64,000 nucleotides of DNA, from positions 865-64,864 of the forward strand of contig JAZNIK010000028.1 of assembly GCA_045577495.1 (NCBI GenBank). Reading direction: 5' to 3'. The stretch is from Acutalibacteraceae bacterium (GTDB lineage Bacteria > Bacillota > Clostridia > Oscillospirales > Acutalibacteraceae). Of the stretch, positions 13,494-21,592 are shown piece after piece. The number at the start of each line of letters is the position of its first letter. Position 1 is the stretch's first letter. The notes below the pieces were generated by a model. It made no database searches, had not been told where the DNA came from, and worked only from the letters and a program-made list of their open reading frames with translations. The translations under genes were made by a program, and so were the position numbers.

Positions 13494-13560
13494 GATTTAC
13501 ACATTATTCAATAATTTTGTTTCTAAATAGTTTAGAATATTTTAAGCGGAGGTGTTAGAT

Positions 13561-14421
13561 GTGTTTGGATATGTTAAGGCATACAAGCCTGAGCTTAGAA
13601 TAAAAGAGTTTGAAATGTATAAAGCGGTTTATTGTTCGCTTTGTAAAAGCCTTGGTAAAAAGTATGGAATTGTATCACGCTTTTCACTAAGCTATGATTT
13701 TACTTTTTTATCACTTTTGTATTTGGCTTTAAGAGATGGATGTGTTTCGACCGAGCGTAAATGTTGCGTTTGTAATCCATTTAAAAAGTGCAATTATTTA
13801 AAACCGAACGACACACCTGATATGCCTTCTGCGGCGGCAGAGATAATGCTCTACTGCAAATTAGAGGATAACATTAAGGATGAAGGCTTTTTTAAATCTT
13901 GTTTTTATAGTGTGCTAAGAGCACTTTGTAAAAACGGGTATAATAAAGCGGTAAAAGAATTTCCCGAGTTAGATAATCTTTTTAAAGAATATATCGCAAA
14001 TCAAAACAAGATAGAAATAGAAAATCTGCAAAATATAGATGCGGCCGCCGACCCAACAGCAAAAATGCTTTCAAATTTATTTGCGTTTTGTGGGGTGGGG
14101 AATGAAACCCGCGCGCTAGAGCGTCTTGGCTATTGTATGGGCAGATGGATATATTTAATGGATGCCGCCGCCGATTTAAAGGATGATTTAAAAAAGGGTA
14201 GATATAATCCCTTAACATATGAGGCAAAAAAACAAACAGATTTAGATTTGTTTTTAAAACAAAGGCTTTTTGAGCAGTTAAATATATGTGTTAAAGAGGC
14301 TGCGGCGGCTTTTGAACTAATAGACATTATGAGATTTAAAAATATATTGGGCAATATAATTTATTTAGGTTTAGAGGATAGTCAAAACAACCTATTTTTA
14401 AAGGAGAAGGATAAAAAATGA
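13561..14421 (+). CDS. Conserved Clostridial protein of unknown function (I recall it as DUF5685-type) carrying squalene/phytoene-synthase-like Asp-rich motifs and N-terminal Cys clusters
   Basis: [13 protein letters not shown] and [29 protein letters not shown], plus CSLC and [10 protein letters not shown]. The track GTG at 13552 overlaps the GGAGG at 13548-13552, so GTG 13561 is the more plausible start. Confidence 0.6.
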
Positions 14422-15026
14422 GAGACCCATATTCAGTATTAGGTGTGGACAGAAATGCCACTGACGAGCAAATAAAAAACGCATATCGTGAACTTGCTAG
14501 AAAATATCATCCCGATAATTATGGTGATAATCCGCTTTCTGACTTGGCACAGGAAAAAATGCAAGAAATAAATGAGGCGTATGACCAAATTATGAATAGT
14601 CGTAGACATCGCAAGAGTAATAATGGCACAGGCTATTCGGGAAGCTCGAATTTTGCGGATGTAAGGTCACTTATATCAAATAACAAGATTGAAGAGGCTC
14701 AAGAACTTTTAGATGGTGTTCCAGTTGAAAAACGTGATGCAGAATGGTATTTTTTAAACGGAACTGTGCTATATCGTCGCGGTTGGTTTGATAATGCTTT
14801 TACAAGCTTTGCAACAGCCTGTCGTATGGACCCATCAAACCCCGAGTATCGTGAGGCTTTTGCACGTATGCAACGCACAAGAGGTAATGGCTTTGCTGGT
14901 AATCCATATCGTTCTGCAGGTAATATGGGTGGCGGCGGTTGTGACGCTTGCGATGTTTGTAATACCTTAATTTGTGCCGACTGTTGTTGTGAGTGTATGG
15001 GCGGCGATTTAATACGTTGTTGCTAA
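14418..15026 (+). CDS. J-domain protein with a C-terminal cysteine string
   Basis: J domain DPYSVLGV...[12 protein letters not shown] (HPD present). The tail [28 protein letters not shown] has 10 Cys in the last 28 aa. The start overlaps the upstream stop (ATGA) and follows AAGGAGAAGG. Confidence 0.85.
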
Positions 15027-15027
15027 T

Positions 15028-15552
15028 ATGAAAACAAAAAGATTAAGCTTCTCTGCAATGATGGCGGCGTTGGCTACTGTTTTAATGTTGGTTGGATATT
15101 TTCCGTATCTTACCTATGCGGTGCCTTGTGTTGCATCACTGCCGATAATGGTTGTTTTAATTGAATTTAATAAAAAATCTGCATTATATACTTATATAGC
15201 ATCAATTTTGCCTGTGTTTTTGTTTTGCGAGCCCGAATCAAAACTACTATATTTGTGCTTTGTTGGGTTTTACCCTGTTTTAAAGGCAATTTTAGAGGGT
15301 GTAAAAAGCAGAATAGTAGAATTTGTATTAAAGTTTGCTGCCTTTAACATAGGAGTTGCTATTATTTATTTGCTTAGCAGATTTGTTTTTGGAATAAGCT
15401 TTGATGATTTAGGTGAACTTGGTAAATATGGCTCTGTTATATTTGTAACACTAGCCAACCTTGTCTTTTTGGCTTATGATTTTTGCCTTTCAAAAATGGC
15501 GGTTTATTATATGTACCGTTTACATTCTTCGGTGCAAAAATTTCTGAAATGA
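15028..15552 (+). CDS. Small polytopic membrane protein (hypothetical; ECF S-component-like size and topology)
   Basis: 174 aa with about 5-6 hydrophobic segments. It starts 1 nt after the J-protein stop (TAATATG) with no separate strong RBS, which suggests translational coupling. Confidence 0.55.
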   Translation: MKTKRLSFSAMMAALATVLMLVGYFPYLTYAVPCVASLPIMVVLIEFNKKSALYTYIASILPVFLFCEPESKLLYLCFVGFYPVLKAILEGVKSRIVEFVLKFAAFNIGVAIIYLLSRFVFGISFDDLGELGKYGSVIFVTLANLVFLAYDFCLSKMAVYYMYRLHSSVQKFLK

Positions 15553-18090: not shown

Positions 18091-20157
18091 TTGAATATTA
18101 AATTGGCAAAAACAGCGGGATTTTGCTTTGGTGTTAATCGCGCTGTTGATATGGTCGAACAGTTTGTTGATAACGGCGAAAAGGTTTGCACTTTAGGACC
18201 CATAATTCATAATGCTCAGTTGGTTGATAGCTTAAAGAAAAAGGGTGTTAGAATTATTGATACCCCAGACCAAGTAAAAAGCGATGAAATTCTTGTTATT
18301 CGTTCACACGGTGTCGCTGCTGAGGTGTATGAGTTAAGCAAAAAGTTTGCAAAAAGGGTAGAGGATGCAACCTGTCCCTTTGTTTCTAAAATTCACAATA
18401 TCGTAAATCAGCGCTCAAATGAGGGTGATATAATTCTTATTGCGGGTGATGAAACTCATAATGAGGTAATAGGCATAAGAGGGCATATCAATGGTTTGTC
18501 ATATGTTTTTTCAAGTGAAGAAAATTTGATAGAACTATTAAAAAATCATCCCGAGCTTAAAAAAAATGCTGTATCTGTCGTTGCACAAACAACTTTTAAT
18601 GAAAAAACATTCAAAAAAACTGAAAAAATTTTAAAAAAGGTATGTACAAATGCAACGATTTTTGATACAATATGTAATGCGACTTCAAAAAGGCAGTCTG
18701 AGGCGGCTGACCTTTCTGCTGAGTCAGACACTATGATAGTGGTTGGCGGTAGGCATAGTTCAAATACCAATAAATTGTTTGCTATTTGCAAAGCAAATTG
18801 TGAGCATACATATCTTGTCGAAACGGCGGATGAGGTAAATGGGGTTTGGTTTAAAAATGCTAAGCAGGTTGGAGTTGTAGCGGGTGCATCAACACCTGCG
18901 GGTATTATAAAGGAGGTCATTTCAATTATGACAGAAACAATTAAAACCACTGATGAGCTTAATATCGGTGCAGAAATTTCGGACGATATGTCCTTTGAGG
19001 AGGCACTTGAACTTTCGCTCAGCAGTTTAAATACAGATCAGAAAGTGCATGGTGTAGTTCTTGCGGTTGGTCCTACCGAAATACAGGTAGATATCGGCCG
19101 TAAACAGACCGGTTATGTTCCGGCATCTGAGTTCTCTTATGACCCAAATGTAAAGCTTTTAGAAGCTGTAAAAATTGGCGATGAGTTAGACCTCATTGTT
19201 ATGAAAACTAATGATCAGGAAGGCACAATAATGCTTTCTAAACGCCGTTATGATAATATTGCCAACTGGGATAAGATTGTTGAGGCAAGTGAAAACGGCA
19301 CTGTTTTAGATGGTGTTGTTTCAGAGATTATTAAGGGTGGAATGATTGTAACTGCTTTGGGCTTCCGCGTATTTGTTCCTGCTTCTCAAGCAACTGTAAT
19401 TCGTGGTGAAGACCTTGAACCATTAAAGGGTCAAACAGTTTCCTTTAAGGTTTTAGAGATTGGCCGTCGTCGTCGTGTTATTGGTTCAGTTCGTGCAGTT
19501 CTTCAAGAGGCACGTAAGGAGCAAGAGGCAAAATTCTGGGAGAATGTTGCAGTAGGCGATGTATTTAGCGGTGTTGTTAAATCACTCACAGGCTACGGCG
19601 CTTTTGTTGACCTTGGCGGTGTTGATGGTATGGTTCATATTTCTGAACTTTCTTGGCAACGTATTAAGAATCCTGCTGAGGTTGTAAGCGTTGGCGATAC
19701 TATTGAGGTTTATATTAAGGATATTGATACCGATAAAAAGAAAATTTCTTTGGGCTATAAAAAACCTGAGGATAATCCGTGGACAATATTCAAAAACGAG
19801 TATGCAGATAAAGACGTTGTTAAGGCTACAATAGTTAATATGACAACCTATGGCGCATTTGCTCGTATTATTCCCGGTGTTGATGGTTTGATTCATATTT
19901 CTCAAATTGCTGACCGCAGAATTGAAAAACCTCAAGATGAGCTTAAAATCGGCCAAGAGGTTGATGTTAAGATTATCGGCATTGATGAGGATAAAAAGCG
20001 TATCAGTCTTTCAATAAGAGCTTTGCTTGACCCTAAAGCAGCAGAGGAAGAGGAAATCTTGAACGATACTGCAGAGTCAGTTGAGGCTACTGTTGAGGAA
20101 ACACAAGAAGCTCCAGCTACTGAGGAAGCTGCTCCTGAAGCTACCGAGGCTGAATAA
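18091..20157 (+). CDS. ispH: Fusion of 4-hydroxy-3-methylbut-2-enyl diphosphate reductase (IspH) with a ribosomal protein S1-like part carrying four S1 repeats
   Basis: TTG start. N-terminal IspH region (AKTAGFCFGVNRAV, HNEV, SSNT). From about residue 300 there are repeated S1 domains (GVV..., FVDLGGVDGMVHISE, FARIIPGVDGLIHISQ) and an acidic tail. Confidence 0.9.
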   Translation: MNIKLAKTAGFCFGVNRAVDMVEQFVDNGEKVCTLGPIIHNAQLVDSLKKKGVRIIDTPDQVKSDEILVIRSHGVAAEVYELSKKFAKRVEDATCPFVSKIHNIVNQRSNEGDIILIAGDETHNEVIGIRGHINGLSYVFSSEENLIELLKNHPELKKNAVSVVAQTTFNEKTFKKTEKILKKVCTNATIFDTICNATSKRQSEAADLSAESDTMIVVGGRHSSNTNKLFAICKANCEHTYLVETADEVNGVWFKNAKQVGVVAGASTPAGIIKEVISIMTETIKTTDELNIGAEISDDMSFEEALELSLSSLNTDQKVHGVVLAVGPTEIQVDIGRKQTGYVPASEFSYDPNVKLLEAVKIGDELDLIVMKTNDQEGTIMLSKRRYDNIANWDKIVEASENGTVLDGVVSEIIKGGMIVTALGFRVFVPASQATVIRGEDLEPLKGQTVSFKVLEIGRRRRVIGSVRAVLQEARKEQEAKFWENVAVGDVFSGVVKSLTGYGAFVDLGGVDGMVHISELSWQRIKNPAEVVSVGDTIEVYIKDIDTDKKKISLGYKKPEDNPWTIFKNEYADKDVVKATIVNMTTYGAFARIIPGVDGLIHISQIADRRIEKPQDELKIGQEVDVKIIGIDEDKKRISLSIRALLDPKAAEEEEILNDTAESVEATVEETQEAPATEEAAPEATEAE

Positions 20158-20225: not shown

Positions 20226-20260
20226 AAAAAAATCCCACTTTCCAAGGAGGAAAGTGGGAT
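20226..20260 (-). terminator. Rho-independent terminator of the minus-strand lipoprotein gene
   Basis: 12-bp stem ATCCCACTTTCC / GGAAAGTGGGAT with a 5-nt loop. The U-run on the minus strand corresponds to the A-run at 20226-20232. Confidence 0.75.
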
Positions 20261-20270
20261 AAAGTTTTTA

Positions 20271-21374
20271 TTATGCATTTTCTTCGGGATATACAATCTT
20301 TTTAACCTTAAAACGTTTAGTAGCAAATTTGTTGTTGTCAACCTTAAAATCGGTTGTTTTTTTAGTAACAAGCTTATCGAATTCTTCTTGTTTTAAAATA
20401 TAAAGAATAGAATCATTAAGGCTATTTAGATAATATTCATCCTCTGAGATATCAAGCTTAACATAAATGGTACAAGCGTTATCCTCGCCCTCGATAAGCT
20501 TAACTTCGCCCTTTTTCATATCATAAACAGTTTCAAAGTTTTCGTCAGCATAGTCGGTATTTTCGTCGCCAATAATGGAAGCATATCTGTCTTTTGGCAT
20601 TTCTTCAGTAGATTCTGCTTCTGTTTTTTCTTGTTCTTCTAACTGCTCTTGGGTGATTTGATTGTATTCAATGTAAATATCTTCAAAATCTTTGCCTTTT
20701 TCTAAGTCTTTTGCATACTCCTCAAATTTTGCTTTTGTTGCCTTTTTCTCATCATCTGTTGTTTCCTCTGTATAAGAGGTTGCAAGGGTGTAAACAAGAG
20801 CAAATTTTTCGGTCATTGTTTTTAGGATATCTTTTTTTGCAACTTCTTTTTCGCCGTCTTTACCATAGAGTGACATAAAGTATGCATTTGAATAGTAGCT
20901 GTATGTGAAGGCTTTTTTGTATGTATCTAACGATACGCCGTTTGCCTCGTATACAGAACTTGCACCATAACTCCAATAATATTCAGCGTAGCTTTCTGCC
21001 TCGGATTTTTCTTCATCGGTTAGCTTGATTTTTTTATCCTCAACAAGTTCCTGATAAAAAACATATTCTTTGCAACGCTCAATAGTTTTTGAGATAACAT
21101 AATCCTCATAGCTTAAGCCATCGATTTTTTGAGCGTAGTAATCGGTTTCTTCGGTGGTTTCGGTTTCGGAAGAGGTTTTATCATTTGCAATTTCTTCGTC
21201 AACTCGTTGCTTTGCTTCGGAATCACATTCTAATAATGCATTGAGGTAGAGAGCAGATTTAATTTGTGTATCATTGATGGTAAGGGCAACTTCATCCTTG
21301 CCGTGACAACCACACATTGATAACATTACGCAGCCGGAAAGTATGGCGGCGATAAATTTCTTTGTAATTTTCAT
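20271..21374 (-). CDS. Lipoprotein, SurA/PrsA N-terminal-domain-like (no obvious parvulin domain)
   Basis: MKITKKFIAAILSGCVMLSMCGC lipobox. The likely start is ATG 21374, 9 nt after GGAGGAG; the track start is 21416. Confidence 0.6.
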   Translation of the reverse strand: MKITKKFIAAILSGCVMLSMCGCHGKDEVALTINDTQIKSALYLNALLECDSEAKQRVDEEIANDKTSSETETTEETDYYAQKIDGLSYEDYVISKTIERCKEYVFYQELVEDKKIKLTDEEKSEAESYAEYYWSYGASSVYEANGVSLDTYKKAFTYSYYSNAYFMSLYGKDGEKEVAKKDILKTMTEKFALVYTLATSYTEETTDDEKKATKAKFEEYAKDLEKGKDFEDIYIEYNQITQEQLEEQEKTEAESTEEMPKDRYASIIGDENTDYADENFETVYDMKKGEVKLIEGEDNACTIYVKLDISEDEYYLNSLNDSILYILKQEEFDKLVTKKTTDFKVDNNKFATKRFKVKKIVYPEENA

Positions 21375-21592
21375 TGGTGAAAACTCCTCCTTATTGATGG
21401 AAAATAAATTACTCATATAATTATATCTTATTTAATTCTAAAAGTCTAGTGTTTTTTACAAATACGATAATAAAAAGTGTTGCAAGTTTGTAATTTTTTG
21501 TCACCAAATTGATATTAAAATGTAAACAAAATGAAAAGACTTTTGAGTTTGGTTTGTGTATAATAATAATATCGAAGAAATGAGGTGAGCAT

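Follow-up and report, generated by a model that had tools for sequence, protein, structure and literature searches.

Three adjacent genes occupy positions 13561 to 15552 of a 64,000-nucleotide stretch of DNA from an Acutalibacteraceae bacterium (contig JAZNIK010000028.1, positions 865 to 64,864), which is called the window here. Gene 1 encodes a protein of the DUF5685 family, gene 2 a J-domain protein that ends in a cysteine-rich tail, and gene 3 a polytopic membrane protein. The trio is an inseparable, translationally coupled unit of Clostridia. Structure prediction assigns the gene 1 product to the class-I isoprenoid-synthase fold and likens the gene 3 product to the S component of energy-coupling factor (ECF) systems. 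We favour a reading in which the gene 1 protein alkylates, or otherwise loads, the cysteine tail of the gene 2 protein, docking the J protein at the membrane with the gene 3 protein. Its probability is put at roughly one in three.

An inseparable and translationally coupled trio

The three open reading frames (ORFs) lie on the forward strand at 13561-14421 (gene 1), 14418-15026 (gene 2) and 15028-15552 (gene 3). The ORFs proposed in a first-pass annotation, together with the ATGA overlap, the single-nucleotide gap and a polytopic third product of 174 residues, were confirmed by the ORF list and direct reads of the sequence. Gene 2 starts at 14418 within the 4-nucleotide (nt) ATGA overlap, and 1 nt separates its stop codon from the ATG of gene 3 (TAA-T-ATG). 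The mechanical ORF of gene 1 spans 13552-14421 (289 residues). The real start is the GTG at 13561, which has a GGAGG 8 nt upstream and yields the N-terminus MFGYVK found in all homologues, and the database protein accordingly has 286 residues. The residue numbers of the first-pass annotation refer to the 289-residue ORF and exceed those of the true protein by 3. Genes 1 and 2 encode no segment resembling a transmembrane (TM) helix, and the gene 1 product is predicted to be soluble. Gene 3 encodes several hydrophobic 19-mers.

The conservation of this arrangement was studied in 31 genome loci, 80 metagenome loci and three contigs looked up by protein. Gene 1 alone seeded the sampling, which extended to homologues of about 34% identity, and all sampled genomes are Clostridia. 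All 88 loci (88/88) whose sequence continues for 1300 nt or more past gene 1 have the gene order 1-2-3. The overlap of genes 1 and 2 is usually 4 nt, and the gene 3 product has about 175 residues across the syntenic loci. Four apparent misses proved to be ORF-start artefacts. The trio is also present in 3/3 of the looked-up contigs, where its neighbours are unrelated (flagellar genes; cdaA/ybbR and yicC/remA/gmk; ilv/leu). The three genes, whose co-occurrence the first-pass annotation had proposed to check, are thus strictly syntenic in the sampled Clostridia, and chance is far from able to explain such an arrangement. In one contig from human gut (L109:2678-4888) the trio is frameshifted or truncated: gene 1 ends early, near residue 218, and two ORFs make up the J gene. 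Either the sequence contains an error or this copy is decaying.

The flanking genes are variable. The uvrA gene lies directly upstream in 34/77 loci, and a gene for an HI0933-type flavoprotein lies downstream in 30/70. The genes cmk and plsC occur in 19/31 genome loci as against 5/80 and 2/80 metagenome loci. In the window, the adjacent plsC and ispH-rpsA are accordingly housekeeping genes whose presence there is incidental. The first-pass annotation had drawn weak support for a lipid link from plsC, ispH and the flavoprotein gene; we discarded this context because the flanking genes change between loci, and the plsC/ispH context is found mostly in the locus set of closer relatives.

A conserved site lies upstream of gene 1. 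A 15-bp quasi-palindrome, TTTACACATTATTCA, at 13496-13510 on the forward strand begins 3 nt after the uvrA stop codon, and its motif is unique within the window. The consensus of this operator-like family is aAATTTACAcaTTATTaAc, with TTAACA-N3-TGTTAA as the perfect form, and perfect palindromes are found in three loci (L015, L085 and L094). Of 73 distinct loci, 48 have the strict motif ahead of gene 1, at a distance of 58-105 nt. Its density is 6.6 per kb in the upstream regions versus 0.033 per kb elsewhere (about 1.2 Mb), an enrichment of about 200-fold. When the loci are aligned on the operator, a -10-like element, tAAaAt, appears at a fixed distance (+37 to +42). In the window this element is the hexamer TAGAAT at 13533-13538 (+), and there is no canonical -35 element. 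Transcription is predicted to start near 13545, which would centre the operator-like site near -42, as is usual for sites of class-II activators. Apart from its 2-nt spacer, the PrfA box, TTAACAnnTGTTAA, resembles the motif. The conserved operator-like site and -10 box indicate that the trio is an operon with its own predicted promoter, and both elements precede gene 1 whatever the upstream gene. No regulator of the Crp/Fnr type was found in the window or the loci. The conserved operator offers a handle on the inducing condition. One locus (L041) has an extra copy of the operator upstream of uvrA.

Families and predicted folds of the three products

The gene 1 protein belongs to Pfam family DUF5685 (PF18937, E 2e-76), its sole Pfam match at E at most 1. 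The family comprises 4483 clusters at 50% identity (E at most 1e-3), and its members, which come from Clostridia of animal gut, human gut and fermentation metagenomes, are named only 'DUF5685 family protein' or 'hypothetical' in the databases. The literature yielded no functional description of DUF5685, whose sole appearance is a list entry, and no mention of PF18937. Consistent with the first-pass annotation, no functional description of the trio was found there either.

Conservation in gene 1 was read from an alignment of 120 homologues (A1) with 34-67% identity. The invariant residues are G3, Y24, C25, C28, D46, C69, D103, D107, G194, Y198, D201, D205 and D209. In addition, Q148, E152, D160, N216, N265 and G270 are at least 96% conserved, with E152, D160 and N216 reaching at least 99%. 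The five aspartates of the D103-D107 and D201-D209 series make up two colinear DxxxD motifs, D103-x3-D107 (13867-13881, +) and D201-x3-D205-x3-D209 (14161-14187, +). The two segments in which the first-pass annotation had seen Asp-rich signatures (residues 96-108 and 189-217, there numbered 99-111 and 192-220) are present and hold these motifs, whose five aspartates are the same in all 120 homologues. The cysteine clusters that it quoted are present as well: CSLC is residues 25-28 and the second cluster is residues 68-77. C25-x2-C28 together with C69/C77 forms a candidate metal site (13633-13791, +). A fourth cysteine near C69 is found in 108/120 homologues at a position that varies.

An AlphaFold2 model of the gene 1 protein, built on the same alignment, has a predicted local distance difference test (pLDDT) score of 96.6 and a predicted template-modelling (TM) score of 0.93. 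According to DSSP it is all-alpha apart from one beta hairpin (residues 64-80), which bears C69 and C77; C25-x2-C28 lies on the first long helix. In a Foldseek comparison with the PDB, all matches of probability 1.00 are enzymes of the isoprenoid-synthase fold. They include solanesyl, geranylgeranyl, hexaprenyl and octaprenyl diphosphate synthases, with TM-scores up to 0.62 and a best E of 5e-4, and MoeN5 with TM-scores of 0.60/0.64. The two Asp motifs are at the C-terminal ends of modelled helices 87-107 and 183-204, a predicted placement that matches the metal-binding motifs of the class-I fold.

The first-pass annotation had called gene 1 squalene/phytoene-synthase-like. The fold part of this claim agrees with the model and the Foldseek matches; membership of PF00494 does not hold. 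A CrtM-like structure, also among the Foldseek matches of probability 1.00, ranks only 28th (TM-score 0.44), below the polyprenyl synthases and MoeN5. Neither PF00494 nor polyprenyl_synt is among the Pfam matches listed for the 120 homologues, each scanned singly (25 of 64 families, E at most 1); of the families listed, DUF5685 alone matches more than two homologues. Profile comparisons were made with CrtM (checked against PDB 4e9u_A), with an alignment of CrtM and eight annotated phytoene, squalene or presqualene synthases from plasmid records (A4), and with the geranylgeranyl diphosphate synthase (GGPPS) CrtE. By hhalign, the DUF5685 profile against CrtM gave a non-significant E of 0.054, the 120 homologues against the nine-member alignment gave an E of 0.15 with a probability below 1%, and the DUF5685 profile against CrtE gave a non-significant E of 0.11. 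Global alignment of DUF5685 with the nine-member alignment was uninformative. The single local segment in all three comparisons is the helix with G190-Y191-x2-G194-x3-Y198-x2-D201, and these non-significant alignments place it on N168/D172/D176 of CrtM and on the second Asp-rich motif of GGPPS. Since the helix fits the GGPPS motif equally weakly, the resemblance is to the superfamily and not to the squalene/phytoene family. Judged by the Pfam matches listed and the profile comparisons, gene 1 is thus not a squalene/phytoene synthase of PF00494. Its model places it within the class-I isoprenoid-synthase fold, as a family of its own and a very distant one.

Other searches with gene 1 were less informative. 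A PDB sequence search with the protein alone and with its profile returned only designed helical repeats, which were treated as noise. An NCBIfam match to the radical-SAM protein PapB was rejected on the same ground (E 0.009, 15 bits versus a cut-off of 340). No fusion of gene 1 to a J domain was found among the best 150 representatives. In one database protein of 282 residues (P0211), DUF5685 residues 1-210 are followed by about 70 C-terminal residues of the undecaprenyl diphosphate synthase UppS; as both parts are truncated, the join probably arose in assembly. A genuine fusion would tie DUF5685 to polyprenyl metabolism.

Gene 2 (14418-15026, +) encodes 202 residues. The first-pass annotation was right to call its J domain bona fide: residues 1-63 (14418-14606) match PF00226 with 65.8 bits versus a cut-off of 27.8, and the HPD motif is at residues 31-33. 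DnaJ_CXXCXGXG and DnaJ_C have no match at E at most 1, and without a class A or B module the protein is classed as a class-C J protein. Residues 78-152 (14649-14873) show several sub-threshold TPR matches (best E 2e-4), which suggests a TPR-like helical domain. A variable Gly-rich linker leads to the cysteine-rich tail, residues 175-202 (14940-15023). The protein has more than 8000 database matches, named only 'J domain-containing protein' or 'CbpA'. Its architecture is not described in a large survey of J-domain architectures, and no description was found in the literature on bacterial Cys-string or TPR J proteins.

In 81 distinct homologues of the gene 2 protein, mean column conservation is 0.76 for the J domain, 0.64 for the TPR-like domain, 0.36-0.40 for the two linkers and 0.75 for the tail. 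The last 28 residues in the window hold 10 cysteines, as the first-pass annotation had counted; the terminal -CC that it had stressed is not a conserved feature. A majority of tails do end in -CC, and others end in -GC, -CR, -CRC or -LTC. The core C-x2-C-x4-C-x2-C-x-C-x-C is at least 90% conserved. The number of cysteines per tail ranges from 7 to 14 with a mode of 10 (50/69 distinct tails), and losses are offset by a cysteine gained at a neighbouring position. Non-Cys residues (D, AD, E, GGDLI) are conserved too. Three tail variants gave no Pfam match, and there was no PDB sequence match to the tail.

The HPD motif is retained in 75/81 homologues. It is degenerate in about 5/81 (HLD, QPE, SPD, HSS or a deletion), at L027:5851-6444, L061:4927-5622, L076:4902-5561, L081:2383-3024 and L104:1839-2456; these genes retain the TPR-like domain and the Cys tail. 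To judge from these sequences, stimulation of DnaK may be dispensable in some lineages.

The gene 3 protein was modelled with database homologues (pLDDT 89.5). Its top five Foldseek matches are all RibU (probability 0.99-1.00, TM-score 0.50-0.58, E 0.02-0.13), and the probability then falls to 0.28 or less (0.20 for the next match). The model therefore points to a small six-helix fold like that of ECF S components. Sequence comparison with Pfam gives only a sub-threshold match to DUF2232 (22.6 bits versus a cut-off of 27.8), which recurs in 31/66 homologues. There is no NCBIfam match, the profile has no PDB sequence match, and every Pfam S-component family stays below threshold. The invariant residues are mostly polar or aromatic (T29, Y30, E46, E70, Y82, K86, K102, D151 and Y161). 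A CaaX protease of the Rce1/CPBP type was considered for gene 3 and rejected, as there is no conserved His or EExxxR and the fold is that of an S component. EcfT and EcfA were not seen beside the trio in the loci, although no search was aimed at them.

What the trio may do

In the favoured reading, the three products would be made in coupled amounts and would form one membrane-associated unit. The gene 1 protein would bind a prenyl (or other allylic) diphosphate through Mg2+ on its Asp motifs and would move the lipid onto at least one thiol in the tail of the gene 2 protein. Zinc on its three-cysteine site could activate the incoming thiolate, the role that zinc has in protein farnesyltransferase and in other zinc enzymes that alkylate thiols. 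Once lipidated, the tail, with the gene 3 protein as a dock, would keep the J protein at the membrane, and DnaK would be recruited there. Lipid-modified J proteins are known in Ydj1/DNAJA, which are farnesylated, and in DNAJC5, which is palmitoylated on its Cys string. Among the highly conserved elements of the gene 2 protein, the tail is the richest in nucleophiles, its conservation (0.75) equalling that of the J domain, and it stands behind the Gly-rich linker, for which conservation is 0.40. Alkylation of the tail is ranked first on two grounds. To our knowledge, the established substrates of the class-I fold are only allylic or prenyl diphosphates. The only precedent for modification of a polypeptide by this fold is the ComQ/PalQ group, in which the substrate gene adjoins the enzyme gene (PMC13290415). 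The overlapping pair of genes 1 and 2, if an enzyme and its substrate, would echo ComQ-ComX.

Several points weigh against tail alkylation. The gene 1 protein has few conserved basic residues (K100 93%, R40 and K129 82%), which leaves little to hold a diphosphate. No CaaX, -CC or -CXC end is conserved among the tails. All characterised peptide prenyltransferases related to trans-isoprenyl diphosphate synthases target Trp, and S-prenylation of cysteine is described for eukaryotes only (PMC13290415). The loss of HPD from proteins that retain the tail suggests that recruitment of DnaK is not always needed. An S-component-like gene 3 protein with invariant E46, E70, K86, K102 and D151 suggests a small polar ligand and not a lipid anchor. 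Finally, the fixed spacing of the cysteines, their compensation and their count of 10 are what a metal or iron-sulphur (Fe-S) site would show. It is the spacing, count and compensation of the cysteines, the lack of an acceptor motif, the Trp preference of the relatives and the S-component-like partner that hold our estimate near 0.35.

A tail that serves as a metal, Fe-S or redox-sensing module is rated almost as probable as lipidation, and it is at least as consistent with the fixed cysteine spacing. The gene 1 protein, with zinc or a [4Fe-4S] cluster on C25/C28/C69, would then act on a small-molecule diphosphate, possibly a ligand that the gene 3 protein binds or imports. The J protein would be a dedicated co-chaperone or metallochaperone that, with DnaK, serves the maturation, assembly or regulation of this membrane-associated complex. 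The core spacing, the count held at 10, the compensation by neighbouring positions and the conserved non-Cys residues of the tail all suit such a module. Three invariant cysteines and a variable fourth in gene 1 are the pattern of a cluster or zinc site, and the nearest relative of the gene 3 model is the riboflavin S component RibU, with invariant residues that are polar or charged. The hosts are presumably anaerobes rich in Fe-S proteins, and Cys motifs that bind zinc or iron are familiar in some J proteins (the zinc fingers of DnaJ, and Dph4). The tail, however, has no match to a known metal-binding family in Pfam or to a solved structure in the PDB, and it does not meet the ferredoxin motif C-x2-C-x2-C-x3-C-P. 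Such a module also leaves unexplained why an enzyme with a prenyl-synthase fold and a J protein should be inseparable and coupled, and no small-molecule substrate can be named for it.

It is unlikely that gene 1 encodes a non-catalytic or lipid-binding scaffold, with the trio acting as a station for membrane-protein assembly or quality control to which the J protein recruits DnaK and the gene 3 protein belongs as anchor or client. NDUFAF6, a squalene/phytoene-synthase-like assembly factor of complex I, is comparable. A scaffold would fit the finding that gene 1 resembles no catalytic family significantly, in sequence or in profile, and the scarcity of conserved basic residues for a diphosphate; synteny with translational coupling suits a stoichiometric complex. 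Eight acidic residues of gene 1, those of both Asp motifs among them, that are invariant or nearly so at 34-67% identity are nevertheless hard to explain without binding of a metal or substrate, and some lineages have lost HPD while retaining the rest. Far less probable still is that the genes are neighbours merely by a gene order inherited in one clade, with unrelated functions. The sampling would allow it, being seeded from gene 1, confined to Clostridia and limited to about 34% identity. The trio is nevertheless kept in every one of the 88 loci and the three contigs although the genes on either side of it are exchanged entirely. Its own genes meet or overlap at their start and stop codons, and the conserved operator and promoter stand before gene 1 regardless of the upstream gene.

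Should gene 1 indeed alkylate the tail, bacteria would join the organisms with protein Cys-prenylation, a new kind of acceptor would be added to the chemistry of the class-I isoprenoid fold, and the trio would show how a Gram-positive anaerobe positions DnaK activity at the membrane. In its boldest form, this proposal makes DUF5685 the founding class-I-fold protein Cys-prenyltransferase, producing a lipid-anchored Cys-string J protein docked at an S-component-like protein. We regard that form as rather unlikely; if true, it would be the first endogenous bacterial system of protein Cys-prenylation, convergent with CSP-alpha and farnesylated Ydj1. If the tail instead binds a metal or an Fe-S cluster, the trio would hold a new metallo-module of J proteins linked to an isoprenoid-fold enzyme. 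Either reading makes DUF5685, the Cys tail and the DUF2232-like protein assignable families.

Genomic surroundings and known systems

No polyprenyl or squalene synthase was found in the window or the loci, and PADLOC gave no match to a defence system. Downstream in the window, after cmk and a gene for a PlsC-type acyltransferase, a 688-residue ORF (18091-20157, +) combines IspH/LytB (PF02401) with four S1 domains like those of ribosomal protein S1. An ORF on the reverse strand (20271-21416) encodes an acidic protein of 381 residues with a lipoprotein-like hydrophobic/Cys N-terminus and no Pfam match at E at most 1e-5. It converges on ispH-rpsA at 20232-20260, where a hairpin with a 12-bp stem resembles a bidirectional terminator. 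Several of the more distant loci encode, between gene 3 and the HI0933-type flavoprotein gene, a protein of some 290 residues that starts ...LTARIxxKMPEFSKGQRxIAxYI... (L082:6484-7365, L083:6297-7181, L092:6474-7355, L107:6733-7593 and L025:7065-7937). By eye, its sequence looks like that of an RpiR/MurR-type regulator.

Among known systems, the arrangement of genes 1 and 2 is comparable with ComQ-ComX, PalQ and the ChrPC P domain. In these, too, the gene of an isoprenoid-fold enzyme lies directly upstream of, and overlaps, that of the polypeptide which is, or in the trio would be, modified, and the Asp motifs are kept. The known enzymes, however, are recognisable relatives of polyprenyl synthases, and all of them modify Trp in secreted peptides of small size (PMC13290415). 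No relation in sequence between gene 1 and these enzymes could be detected; gene 1 carries an extra site of three or four cysteines, and its putative acceptor is the Cys tail of a 202-residue cytosolic protein.

The squalene/phytoene synthases (CrtM, CrtB and HpnD) share with the gene 1 protein the overall alpha-fold and two motifs of the DxxxD type. The gene 1 segment LGRWxYLxDAxxDxxxDxxxGxYNP resembles LGxAxQLxNIxRDxxEDxxxGRxYLP of PF00494, although its two motifs are 98 residues apart versus about 124 in CrtM. Structurally, the best matches are MoeN5 and the trans-prenyl diphosphate synthases (GGPPS and the octaprenyl and solanesyl enzymes, OPPS and SPS), with TM-scores of 0.55-0.64 at probability 1.00. 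The identity to these proteins is only 10-14%, and gene 1 has DxxxD in place of DDxxD. It differs from them further in the inserted N-terminal CxxC and Cys hairpin and in a gene context that is not biosynthetic.

The gene 2 protein shares with DNAJC5/CSP-alpha and Ydj1/DNAJA a J domain with HPD and a Cys-dense potential membrane anchor. There is no homology beyond the J domain, however, and the string of gene 2 is at the extreme C-terminus, with a fixed spacing and no CaaX. The trio also involves neither a DHHC enzyme nor an alpha/beta prenyltransferase, in contrast to these eukaryotic systems. DjlA is likewise a bacterial J protein and is thought to bring DnaK to the membrane. DjlA is anchored by a TM helix of its own at the N-terminus and carries its J domain at the C-terminus, whereas in the gene 2 protein the J domain comes first and the tail and partner proteins would have to provide any anchoring. 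The gene 3 protein has the small six-helix fold of RibU and a weak similarity to DUF2232/YybS, yet its gene accompanies those of a J protein and an enzyme, not those of a vitamin pathway. While a member of none of these systems, the trio resembles the logic of ComQ-ComX, the lipid-anchored J proteins and the S components.

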